Shown: positions 17,084 to 20,562 of the stretch, in pieces
Position numbering within the stretch: the first letter of the stretch is position 1
Layout: each line of letters begins with the position of its first letter
Assembly (NCBI RefSeq): GCF_024298765.1
Contig: NZ_CP101210.1
Source of the DNA: Escherichia coli
GTDB lineage: Bacteria; Pseudomonadota; Gammaproteobacteria; Enterobacterales; Enterobacteriaceae
DNA length: 64,000 bases
Direction: 5' to 3' (one strand)
Notes under the pieces: model-generated
Databases searched by the model: none
Told to the model about the DNA's origin: nothing
The model's input: only the letters and a program-made list of their open reading frames with translations
Program-made: the position numbers and the translations under genes

Positions 17084-17250
17084 TTAGTATAAAAAAGTTG
17101 AATGTGAAACGGTAAAAACAATTAATATCAACGGCTTATAATTGATTCAGTCTAAAAAATAGACTGCATAATGCTACAAAACACAACATATCCAGTCACT
17201 ATGAATCAACCACTTAGATGGTATTAGTGACCTGTAACAGAGCATTAGCG
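17084..17250. other. prophage attachment junction (attR-type: bacterial arm, core, phage P arm)
   Basis: Core ttagtataaaaaagt at 17084-17098 = reverse complement of lambda core GCTTTTTTATACTAA with one mismatch; followed by sequence matching the lambda attP P arm (ctgttacaggtcactaataccatctaag...cagtcactat). Confidence 0.8.
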
Positions 17251-17286
17251 CAAGGTGATTTTTTTGTCTTCTTGCGCTAATTTTTT
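17245..17286 (+). terminator. sib/tI-like hairpin terminator just beyond att
   Basis: ttagcgcaag...cttgcgctaa inverted repeat followed by TTTTTT; position relative to att matches lambda tI/sib. Confidence 0.55.
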
Positions 17287-17322
17287 GTCAACACACTGGG
17301 TTAGCTGAATTTACAACCACGC

Positions 17323-17544
17323 TCAGTATCTCGATAAGCGCAGAGAAATGATGCAGTGGTGGGCGGATTGGCTTGATGAAAAAGTGGAGTAATCCGGACC
17401 GTACTTCTTTATCCAGGCATAAAGGCTGTGGGTGGTGATATCGAGACGTGTTGCAACGCTGGCAACAGAATAACCGCGATCAATAACCTGTTTGACTGCT
17501 TCAGTTTTAAACTCTTCGGGATAACGCTTACCGCTCATGGGCAC
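17323..17544 (-). pseudogene. IS3-family transposase OrfA fragment (truncated)
   Basis: N-terminal HTH region MSGKRYPEEFK...YSVASVATRLDITTHSLYAWIKKYG then out-of-frame tail. Confidence 0.7.
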
Positions 17545-17688
17545 CTCTCTTTAAGCCATCTTAAATGACTCTGAGGTGTCTGTTAAACCCGTGGCGATTC
17601 AAAACTGCGTGTTACGTTCGCCCTGGACTGTTGCGATCGTGAAGCCATAGACTGGGCCGCAAGCACGGGAGGTTACGATAAAGCGACA

Positions 17689-18054
17689 GTGCAGGATGTC
17701 ATGTTAGGAGCGATAGAAAAACGCTTTGGCGATAAAGTACCGGAACAGTCCATCCAGTGGCTGACAGATAACGGTTCAGCGTATAGAGCGCATGAAACAC
17801 GGCAGTTCGCCAGAGAGTTGAATCTGGAGCCCTGCACAACGGCAATCAGCAGTCCTCAGAGTAATGGAATGGCAGAAAGGTTCGTGAAAACGATGAAGGA
17901 AGACTACATCGCGTTCATGCCGAAACCGAATGTAAGAACGGCATTGCATAATCTTGCAGTGGCGATCGAACATTACAATGAAAACCATCCGCACAGTGCG
18001 CTGGGTTATCGCTCTCCGCGAGAATATCGACGTCAGCGGGTAACGTTAACTTAA
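17689..18054 (+). pseudogene. DDE transposase (IS3-family integrase core) C-terminal fragment
   Basis: TDNGSAY...[11 protein letters not shown]-core motifs; opposite strand to the OrfA fragment, so rearranged IS remnants. Confidence 0.65.
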
Positions 18055-18095
18055 GATACACCCCCTGTCTGGAAATAAGGGGGCAAGAACAATGA

Positions 18096-18848
18096 TCAGA
18101 TTCCCTGGTGAGTAAGAATTTTACTTTCTGAACTCCTCTGAGAGTATTGACTTGGAGAAACACCAAAATAACGTCTAAATACATAAGTAAAGTATGAGAC
18201 ACTGGCATAACCACAGACCTTAGCTACTTTACTAATAGGATAACAACGAGTGCTGAGTAAATATTCAGCCATTTGCATCCTCTCATCAAGTATGATCTTA
18301 CTGAATGATACCCCCTCTTCTTTCAATTTCATCTTTAGTAAACTTTCGCTGAGATATAATCTTGATGATATATCCTTAAGACGCCATGGTGCAGATAAAT
18401 CCGTATGAATAATCGTTTTAACTTTAGCCCCTGTGCTTTTCAAACATCCAAACAGAAATACTCCAAATTGTTTTTCAGAAGAAAATGCAGAGAGACATGT
18501 AAAAGCAATAGACTCATCAAAAATTTCTATGTATTCAGCACAGTGATTAGCCCAACTAATTAATCCTTTAATTAAACTGAAGTCAGCAAAGTTTATTTTT
18601 AAATAAGATGGATATTCCCTACAATCAGAAATATCCCTTAAGTTATTAGCTTTCAAATAGCGACTAATAAACTCAGCGCCAAAATCCGCCACTATCACTC
18701 TTTCAGGATATGTCAGGAAAAAATCTCTAGAGCTAGAGTCGACAAGTACAGATGAACCTCTCTCCAGAAACACACTCTCTTTTCCGAAATAAACATCAAA
18801 GGACTCCAAAATCAATATAACTGAACATGTAGTTGCCATATCATCCAC
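18096..18848 (-). CDS. AraC/XylS-family regulator, AppY/YdeO/GadX-like
   Basis: Low-GC ORF; N-terminus MATTCSVILI... and C-terminal HTH WRLKDISSRLYLSESLLKMKLK...CGYASVSYFTYVFRRYFGVSP resemble AppY/YdeO; start may be the 4th codon. Confidence 0.8.
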   Translation of the reverse strand: MDDMATTCSVILILESFDVYFGKESVFLERGSSVLVDSSSRDFFLTYPERVIVADFGAEFISRYLKANNLRDISDCREYPSYLKINFADFSLIKGLISWANHCAEYIEIFDESIAFTCLSAFSSEKQFGVFLFGCLKSTGAKVKTIIHTDLSAPWRLKDISSRLYLSESLLKMKLKEEGVSFSKIILDERMQMAEYLLSTRCYPISKVAKVCGYASVSYFTYVFRRYFGVSPSQYSQRSSESKILTHQGI

Positions 18849-19060
18849 CCAATTTAACTGAAACCTGGATGAAGTATATGCATATAAAGTTCACTTTGCC
18901 AAACTTCAGTATAAAAAACCACATAAAAAATAGGGTGTGATAAAAAATACCGTAACAATAAAGCAAAGGATTATAAAATCCGTTACAGTTACAAATGATA
19001 CTCAAGAAACAATTCCTTAGGAAAAACTTATTTACAGCCAATAAGGGTAATGACTCGAAC

Positions 19061-19564
19061 TTATTGATAGTGTTTTATGTTCAGATAATGCCCGATGACT
19101 TTGTCATGCAGCTCCACCGATTTTGAGAACGACAGCGACTTCCGTCCCAGCCGTGCCAGGTGCTGCCTCAGATTCAGGTTATGCCGCTCAATTCGCTGCG
19201 TATATCGCTTGCTGATTACGTGCAGCTTTCCCTTCAGGCGGGATTCATACAGCGGCCAGCCATCCGTCATCCATATCACCACGTCAAAGGGTGACAGCAG
19301 GCTCATAAGACGCCCCAGCGTCGCCATAGTGCGTTCACCGAATACGTGCGCAACAACCGTCTTCCGGAGCCTGTCATACGCGTAAAACAGCCAGCGCTGG
19401 CGCGATTTAGCCCCGACATAGCCCCACTGTTCGTCCATTTCCGCGCAGACGATGACGTCACTGCCCGGCTGTATGCGCGAGGTTACCGACTGCGGCCTGA
19501 GTTTTTTAAGTGACGTAAAATCGTGTTGAGGCCAACGCCCATAATGCGGGCAGTTGCCCGGCAT
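19061..19564 (-). CDS. insB: IS1 transposase InsB
   Basis: 167-aa ORF identical in pattern to IS1 InsB. Confidence 0.93.
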
Positions 19565-19758
19565 CCAACGCCATTCATGGCCATATCAATGATTTTCTGG
19601 TGCGTACCGGGTTGAGAAGCGGTGTAAGTGAACTGCAGTTGCCATGTTTTACGGCAGTGAGAGCAGAGATAGCGCTGATGTCCGGCGGTGCTTTTGCCGT
19701 TACGCACCACCCCGTCAGTAGCTGAACAGGAGGGACAGCTGATAGAAACAGAAGCCAC
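19483..19758 (-). CDS. insA: IS1 InsA
   Basis: 91-aa [33 protein letters not shown]... Confidence 0.93.
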
Positions 19759-20562
19759 TGGAGCACCTCAAAAACACCATCATACACTAAATCAGTAAGT
19801 TGGCAGCATCACCAGCCTTCTTGAGGCTACCACCTGTTTTCAGGTGTCATTCAGACGTGATTTGCCCCAGATTGGGAAAGCACGCTTTTTTCTCAGCTAT
19901 CGTCCTCTTATTTTGCCGTTACATTTCTTTTTGCACTCTAATGATTAATTTACAATAATAATATCGGTAATTATTGAGTAATAATAAATTGATTATTGCA
20001 AATGTAATTTAATTCCATCTTCGCGTTATATTCCAATCTTTAATCTCCGCATGGAACAAGTTGCATGCGTGACTATATTAAGACAACTTATAACCACCAA
20101 AACATTTGCTTTGCAAGCAAAAACAGTGACCATTGACTCTAAGAAAATTCCGATCTATTGTTAGGGTCATCAAAGTTACTTAACAGTATTCCGAAATGAA
20201 AATACAAAGCAAGCTAATTGTCTTATTAAACATTATTATTGCATTTATATTATTTGAGCTTTTAGCTCAAAAATTTGGTTTGAGTACATTATTTTAAAGC
20301 AAGATAAACAATATCGGGCACTCTAGTTTTTATAATTAACAATTAAACGTCCATGAAATGTTATTTACTTTTCTTCGCTATTGTCATATCTTAATATAGT
20401 GGCTTACGCCACTCTACTTTCATCACATTTTGTACGTTTATGTACTCGCCATGAAGCTCTTTCATGGCGATTTTTTATTCTTAATCCAAGAACATACTCC
20501 CTACCTATAGCAAAATCACTTTTTTAACAAAAGAATAACGTATTTAGGTAATCATTACGAAT

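Follow-up and report, generated by a model that had tools for sequence, protein, structure and literature searches.

The segment between attR and the tail fibre assembly gene (tfa) of a lambda-type prophage in Escherichia coli, at positions 17084 to 20562 of a 64,000-nucleotide window (the whole stretch of DNA analysed here), raises the question of what has taken the place of the lambda b region and whether it can matter to the host. The segment holds a gene for an AraC/XylS-type regulator, two fragments of insertion sequences (IS) and one complete IS1. Our comparisons indicate that it is a decayed cargo arm, at the b-region position of an mEp332-like lambdoid prophage that sits at the lambda attachment site. 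We consider it highly probable that this mEp332-like arm carries a functional-looking copy of patE, the gene of a published acid-resistance regulator, amid IS and integrase wreckage, and that it has suffered a loss of 550 bp linked to the IS1.

The position of the arm is well defined. The prophage is entered from the left through bioF, bioB, bioA and ybhB, and then through an attR of the lambda type (P-O-B'), in which a 15-bp core aligning to lambda 27724-27738 is joined to the B' arm beside ybhB, with the P arm on the phage side. Core, P arm and sib/tI region together (17084-17296) are 86.5% identical to lambda 27738-27528, and lambda DNA homology resumes at 20582-21200, tfa being the right-hand boundary. 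Searches with the lambda proteins Ea47, Ea31 and Ea59 gave no tblastn matches across the whole window, and there is no lambda homology over 17297-20562; these 3.3 kb of unrelated DNA therefore occupy the place of the approximately 5-kb lambda b region. All elements named in the initial annotation, which had been made from the sequence alone, are where it placed them, and it was right to report no b-region genes between attR and tfa. It was also right to describe IS3-family fragments in opposite orientation. One is an orfA piece at 17392-17538 (minus strand), marked 'transposase, missing C-terminus' by the NCBI annotation pipeline (PGAP); it is 97% identical to a remnant beside yagB in the K-12 element CP4-6 and to features annotated 'IS3 family transposase'. 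The other is an IS2-like C-terminal orfB piece at 17602-18054 (plus strand; NCBIfam IS2 TnpB, E=3.8e-54), with 71% amino acid identity to residues 143-288 of K-12 InsD. The IS2-like fragment stops 4 bp short of the patE stop codon, and its counterpart in strain EDL933, Z0322, is named 'unknown protein encoded by IS2'. The two pieces derive from two different elements, and no complete IS3-family (IS2 group) element is present, only a partial orfB with a right end and a separate orfA N-terminus. At the DNA level, an integrase remnant (17294-17392) matches the 3' end of annotated intS genes with 93-96% identity.

Integrase and IS remnants are typical of islands, and the IS1-free relatives of this region include a piece of an E. 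coli chromosome; it could be argued, then, that the region is not phage DNA but a chromosomal islet placed between attR and the end of the prophage. We regard this as very improbable. The att sites enclose the region, which is bounded by tfa and by the P arm with sib, and its presence in mEp332, a plaque-forming lambdoid phage of K-12 (PMC3442831), contradicts the proposal. The mEp332 genome record (PV340541), which is linearised at the att core, starts and ends at that core, with int at one end and tfa, patE and the IS fragments at the other. Its tfa-to-att arm has the same order as the window, at 98.5-99.1% identity over att core, sib, integrase remnant, IS fragments, patE, spacer and tfa, and mEp332 is the nearest relative of the window prophage throughout. 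In this phage patE is a moron, a non-structural gene outside the essential modules of a viable temperate phage (between tfa and att). The sequenced phages PhiR70_1, mEp332 and ev099 all encode PatE at 98-99% identity. Megablast summaries over 5,426 complete E. coli genomes, from which all our genome counts derive, place patE in 654-668 genomes, the att-lambda-type left junction (integrase remnant, IS3 fragment, IS2 fragment) in 190, the left junction of the IS1 in 100 and the full arrangement of the window in 81. Over the arm (16900-20700), strain E7 matches the window with 100% identity; it is without the 10.9-kb insertion that the window prophage has in its capsid gene.

The initial annotation had likened the regulator, a low-GC AraC/XylS protein, to prophage-borne acid-resistance regulators, and the gene can be named more exactly as an ortholog of PatE (Z0321), as judged from near-identity of sequence together with a conserved neighbourhood. 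Its open reading frame (ORF) is intact over the full length, free of frameshifts and stops. Its amino acid sequence is identical at 246 of 247 positions to the product of the EDL933 gene between Z0319 and Z0322, and the regulator with its surroundings (17618-19045; 1,428 bp) is 99.3% identical to one locus of O157:H7 EDL933, where a DNA invertase, a hypothetical protein, the AraC regulator, an IS2-type fragment and a P4-like integrase follow one another. The supplement of an EDL933 RNA-seq study lists Z0318, Z0319 (hypothetical), Z0321, Z0322 and Z0324 in matching order, the last as 'integrase for prophage CP-933I' (PMC4048457). A gene between Z0319 and Z0322 in that order is Z0321, and according to a 2024 review z0321, on O-island 8, is the gene of PatE (PMC10877973). 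Membership of the AraC/XylS family is evident from a C-terminal DNA-binding domain of about 100 residues with two helix-turn-helix motifs: Pfam PF12833 and PF00165 are recorded for the protein cluster of the regulator, many NCBIfam AraC-type models match residues 136-245, and residues 138-238 align to the DNA-binding domain of GadX (3mkl, E=8e-24). The regulator also matches phrog_1450 (E=1.4e-94), and the names in its protein cluster are all generic ('AraC family'). Orthology with YdeO, GadX or AppY was rejected. YdeO is the top NCBIfam match but scores under the curated cut-off (146.7 versus 348 bits), as does GadX (109 versus 500 bits), and the regulator has 33% identity to YdeO and 27% to AppY.

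What PatE does has been described for the EDL933 allele. In the account of PatE given by the review from which we take these statements, it switches on gadB, gadC, gadE and hdeAB, by way of a cis element located between -132 and -45 in the hdeA promoter, and acts negatively on genes of the locus of enterocyte effacement in enterohaemorrhagic E. coli (EHEC) EDL933 (PMC10877973). The experiment on the regulator that the initial annotation had proposed is already published for PatE. As the published protein activates acid-resistance genes and the gene is carried by phages, patE would be a lysogenic-conversion gene, with an effect on the host that is predicted from EDL933 PatE. The dispensable arm of the lambda-type prophage holds an intact patE with a plausible promoter; as in the published account, PatE would bind upstream of hdeA and raise gadE, gadBC and hdeAB, and the lysogen would gain acid resistance. 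The initial annotation had proposed a lysogenic-conversion gene acting on chromosomal targets; phage carriage holds, whereas action on those targets is published for the EDL933 allele only and not for the allele found here, which differs from it by a single residue (R170M).

The IS1 next to patE is complete. It has 768 bp, terminal inverted repeats (the ends read GGTAATGAC... and ...GCATCACC) and insA and insB' with a programmed frameshift; NCBIfam transpos_IS1 matches both ORFs, and PGAP calls it intact, as 'IS1A family transposase, programmed frameshift'. It is placed 206 bp upstream of the patE start codon. The terminal repeat on the patE side (19046-19060) reads GGTAATGACTCG and that of the copy in another strain, Res13-Lact-PEB20-37-A (locus L003), GGTAATGACTCC, a change of one base inside the transposase-binding end; we take GGTAATGACTCC to be the canonical form of the IS1 terminal repeat. 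The 9-mers flanking the element, GCCAATAAG and AGCCTTCTT, are alike at only 2 of 9 positions, and there is thus no 9-bp target duplication. In this difference the initial annotation had seen the mark of a deletion or rearrangement, and had suggested a comparison with related prophages at att-lambda. That comparison supports it: strain 23CRST021 carries the same arm at att-lambda without IS1, and has exactly 550 bp between the two IS1 flanks (L006, 4451-5000), as have the IS1-free relatives NCTC11023 (L011) and mEp332 (L014, 5245-5794). The patE-proximal 112 bp of this piece are present in 545 genomes, a number close to that of the genomes with patE less the 100 with the IS1 left junction; the piece has therefore been lost from the IS1-bearing genomes and not moved elsewhere. 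The alignments thus identify the IS1 as the mark of a loss of 550 bp and not of a simple insertion, and the target duplication is missing because the 550 bp beyond the IS1 have gone.

The contrary view, already voiced in the initial annotation, would be that the IS1 inserted simply, that its 9-bp duplication has merely degenerated and that no DNA was lost. IS1 usually gives 9-bp duplications, point mutations can blur such repeats, and the IS1 end on the patE side already shows one base change in its terminal repeat (ggtaatgactcG). With agreement at 2 of 9 positions and the 550 bp between the flanks in three relatives that are free of IS1, of which one is a phage genome, we consider this explanation refuted and give it practically no probability. 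Chimeric queries, in which an IS1 end was joined to an intact flank on each side, likewise found no simple-insertion, duplication-flanked or precursor junction in the 5,426 genomes, nor any of the IS1 junction partners elsewhere that the initial annotation had envisaged.

How the 550 bp were lost can be narrowed to two routes. They may have been lost by an IS1-mediated adjacent deletion (intramolecular transposition) or by recombination between two IS1 copies. Adjacent deletion is a classical behaviour of IS1, and the locus resembles its product in that one IS1 is kept, one junction is conserved, the DNA on the far side is gone and there is no target duplication; it differs in that the precursor is not seen here. 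The second route would be homologous recombination between an IS1 upstream of patE and another at 19814, or import of a patE-IS1 segment with a crossover inside IS1, and we hold it to be a tenable if tentative explanation. The left junction between patE (M170) and IS1 is found in two contexts that are unrelated and differ in the right flank, the att-lambda prophage of the window and an island at thrW in L003, and L003 has a second, inverted IS1 nearby, a pattern that is easily explained if IS1 served as the crossover site. Against this, neither an IS1 at 19814 with an intact left flank nor a duplication-flanked IS1 at patE was found in the 5,426 genomes, and both mechanisms would leave the same end product. 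Since L003 shares the left junction and has a different right flank, the comparison shows the patE-side junction to be the older, shared one, and the pattern lends some weight to IS1 as a recombination site. In L003 (8883-10311) the patE-IS1 junction is followed by a gene for a 212-residue protein, the inverted IS1 and a DEAD/DEAH helicase gene before a tfa remnant is reached, an arrangement that may represent an IS1-bracketed cargo insertion.

The lost piece has a history of its own, which can be read in the IS1-free relatives. It starts with about 45 bp of patE-upstream DNA, continues with a 56-bp end of an IS630-family element (internally truncated) and then with about 279 bp matching the yodB-serU intergenic region of K-12, followed by the 3' 57 nt of serU. 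Beyond the serU 3' end the sequence departs from K-12 and runs as phage DNA into the spacer and tfa. A tRNA scan of the related loci found no complete tRNA; the serU 3' fragment was seen by alignment. At the native serU site of the strains ETEC1732 and ECL27829 (L004 and L005), this spacer with its tfa end lies next to yodB, with an identical junction, and the lost piece aligns also to prophages integrated at serU. The IS1-free arm, as these alignments read, carries a fossil serU host-phage junction together with host DNA inside an att-lambda phage, and the identical junction at the native site indicates that the tail-fibre end of the phage once sat at serU. The junction resembles the scar that an aberrant excision or an IS-mediated fusion would leave. 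EDL933 has the same block from patE to the serU fragment at thrW, and then different phage DNA. In the window itself this scar disappeared with the 550-bp deletion.

The substitution that sets the regulator apart from EDL933 PatE, an AGG to ATG change at base 18331 (codon 18330-18332), goes together with the IS1. With a 71-bp probe, the M170 version was found in exactly 100 genomes, the same number as for the IS1 left junction, while 556 of the 5,426 had at least one mismatch. Both sampled IS1-bearing loci (L001 and L003) have M170 and all four IS1-free ones (L002, L006, L011 and mEp332) have R170, so that the equality of the two counts was checked directly in six loci. The equal counts and the co-occurrence indicate that R170M and the upstream IS1 are linked, a link that may reflect hitch-hiking, decay or selection. 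A bolder version is that patE has been remodelled under selection, with IS1 replacing 550 bp upstream and methionine replacing arginine, so as to alter its expression, its targets or both, and is spreading by recombination. The joint presence of IS1 and M170 in two different genomic settings, one the att-lambda prophage and the other the thrW island, would fit this; we nevertheless think it quite unlikely.

Several observations weigh against the reading of this arm as functional cargo. In a multiple alignment of ten proteins, the position of residue 170 is R or K in eight (EDL933 PatE, P0016, P0021, P0022, P0025, P0026, YdeO and AppY), the remaining two being the window allele (M) and a truncated variant (I); GadX, Rns and CsvR have K at the equivalent position. 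A multiple alignment with MarA places residue 170, in the first recognition helix, opposite Arg44 of MarA in a 127-residue numbering, which is Arg46 in the numbering of the crystal structure, where Trp42, Gln45 and Arg46 are the base-contacting residues of helix 3 (PMC3315485). The equivalence with Arg46 is only probable because a pairwise BLASTP of PatE against MarA gave a shifted and heavily gapped alignment, which was set aside in favour of the multiple one. Read counts of Z0321 in EDL933 were low, 1-55 per condition (PMC4048457). As to the deletion, its mechanism is one that we infer from the end product, the precursor insertion being absent from the 5,426 genomes. The arginine-to-methionine change, the lost upstream DNA and the low Z0321 counts together call for caution about the activity of M170, which may be weakened or retargeted.

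Taken further, these points would make the regulator a decaying, dead passenger, silenced, severed from its upstream control by the IS1 and disabled by R170M. The substitution falls at the Arg46-equivalent position and is numerically linked with the IS1 (100 genomes each), the genes around patE are all fragments, and expression of the EDL933 ortholog is low. However, the allele is intact in 100 genomes and in two contexts, its reading frame is full length, and binding may survive one substitution in one of two helix-turn-helix motifs. The best promoter-like site of the region is also kept upstream of patE (TTGGCA-18-TATACT at 18902-18873; 10 of 12 matches in a consensus scan), in upstream DNA that, up to 19045, is 99% identical to that of the IS1-free relatives. 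We therefore judge a dead passenger to be somewhat unlikely, and favour functional-looking cargo, with an M170 allele that may be expressed and active in this lineage. The IS1 reads towards patE and replaces AT-rich DNA, and it could raise or de-silence patE expression.

The features of the arm and its boundaries are collected in the following table.

Table. Features from attR to tfa, with positions in the 64,000-nucleotide window.
Feature	Position	Strand	Basis or remark
Lambda-type attR core	17084-17098	.	TTAGTATAAAAAAG; 14 of 15 bases equal GCTTTTTTATACTAA read on the minus strand
Lambda P arm and sib/tI hairpin region	17099-17293	-	lambda homology stops near 17293-17296
Integrase 3' remnant, IntS/P4-family, last 27 codons (...YNHAQYLDKRREMMQWWADWLDEKVE, then stop)	17294-17392	+	PGAP 'hypothetical, missing N-terminus'
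IS3-family element 5' fragment (end and N-terminal part of orfA helix-turn-helix protein)	17392-17610	-	NCBIfam IS3 family match
IS2-like element 3' fragment (orfB residues about 143-288 and right terminal repeat)	17602-18091	+	DNA alignment reaches IS2 right end
patE ortholog, AraC/XylS regulator	18096-18839	-	247 residues, intact, GC 0.351, allele M170
patE upstream region, retained	18840-19045	-	GC 0.30
IS1, IS1A-like	19046-19813	-	768 bp; insA/insB read towards patE
AT-rich spacer (32% GC), no annotated gene	19814-20562	.	
Candidate small ORF, 33 residues, hydrophobic (MKIQSKLIVLLNIIIAFILFELLAQKFGLSTLF), unannotated	20196-20297	+	ORF list
tfa, tail fibre assembly	20563-21144	-	92.7% amino acid identity to lambda Tfa; phrog_105, E=3e-98

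The spacer between IS1 and tfa is the phage-side arm that abuts the serU junction in other strains. It is at least 80% covered in 279 genomes, and its part at 19985-20562 also stands beside tfa, with about 95% conservation, in prophages at ydfJ and sitD. To the right of the IS1, the first 85 bp (19814-19898) have 94-100% matches to short stretches in many other genomes, some of them under features annotated 'capsid protein' and distant from any tfa. The candidate small ORF is preceded by a promoter-like site (20133-20161) and followed by a hairpin with a T-run (20446-20470), and a diverged copy differs from it by five synonymous changes and one non-synonymous change. It has no PHROG match, and its exact sequence has been called only twice, in metagenomes. 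A scan for known RNA families (Rfam type) over 16900-21200 found IS009 alone, at 20603-20801 on the minus strand (229 bits), wholly within the tfa coding sequence; the match probably reflects a model built on the tfa remnant of a K-12 prophage and not a separate RNA gene.

Two features further into the prophage were seen in passing. The side tail fibre gene (21144-24551, minus strand) encodes 1,135 residues and has a long, repetitive N-terminal half rich in Ala, Ser and Thr, with a GC content of about 0.62 and strong AT skew; this repetitive half is the cause of long spurious ORFs on both strands. At 37884-48753 a 10.9-kb phage satellite lies inside the major capsid gene E of the prophage, flanked by a 10-bp repeat (TGCTTGGGTT). 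It has genes for an integrase, an Icd-like protein, a DUF4222 protein, a primase, a single-stranded DNA-binding protein and its own major capsid and head decoration proteins, and its small terminase gene carries an internal stop. The satellite is present in this major-capsid-gene context in 51 of the 5,426 genomes, and it fits the published type of helper-embedded phage-inducible chromosomal islands (PMC10111431).

Much of this is already known: patE has been studied before, its arm can be seen in many annotated chromosomes and in the deposited genome of a phage, and IS1-associated deletion is textbook material. No publication found by us describes the sublineage with IS1 and R170M, the candidate small ORF in the spacer or the fossil serU junction next to patE; none of the three alters the understanding of the system, and no finding on this region challenges it. 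What the locus adds is that the published acid-resistance regulator of EHEC has a range beyond a cryptic O157 prophage: viable lambda-like phages that integrate at the lambda attachment site carry it, and about 12% of the complete E. coli genomes have the gene. This is useful context for work on acid resistance in avian, porcine or human isolates. In addition, the IS1 deletion and R170M are markers of a sublineage whose PatE may act in a different way.

Several known systems offer a comparison. The patE of EDL933 (prophage CP-933H, O-island 8) is flanked by the same IS2-like fragment and upstream DNA but is located at thrW, whereas the patE of the window belongs to a lambda-type prophage at att-lambda, encodes Met and not Arg as residue 170 and has an IS1 in place of the 550 bp that follow in EDL933. 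The closest counterpart, mEp332, differs in having no IS1, in keeping the 550 bp with the serU junction, in having R170 and in an uninterrupted capsid gene. The bio and gal transducing phages of lambda, like the b region itself, illustrate that the non-essential arm between tfa and att tolerates replacement. The IS1-free relatives similarly hold a host-phage junction and about 336 bp of host DNA, as after an aberrant excision, but here the host DNA comes from serU and not from the current site, and it is joined to a truncated IS630-family element. AppY of the K-12 prophage DLP12 and the chromosomally encoded YdeO and GadX belong to the same AraC subfamily as the regulator, with the motif SESLLKxKL, and AppY, PsrB and PatE all feed the AR2 acid-resistance system (PMC10057817). 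The appY gene also lies just beyond the tail-fibre assembly genes, at the end of DLP12, and the matching placement of patE in the window therefore makes this a recurrent position for such regulators.

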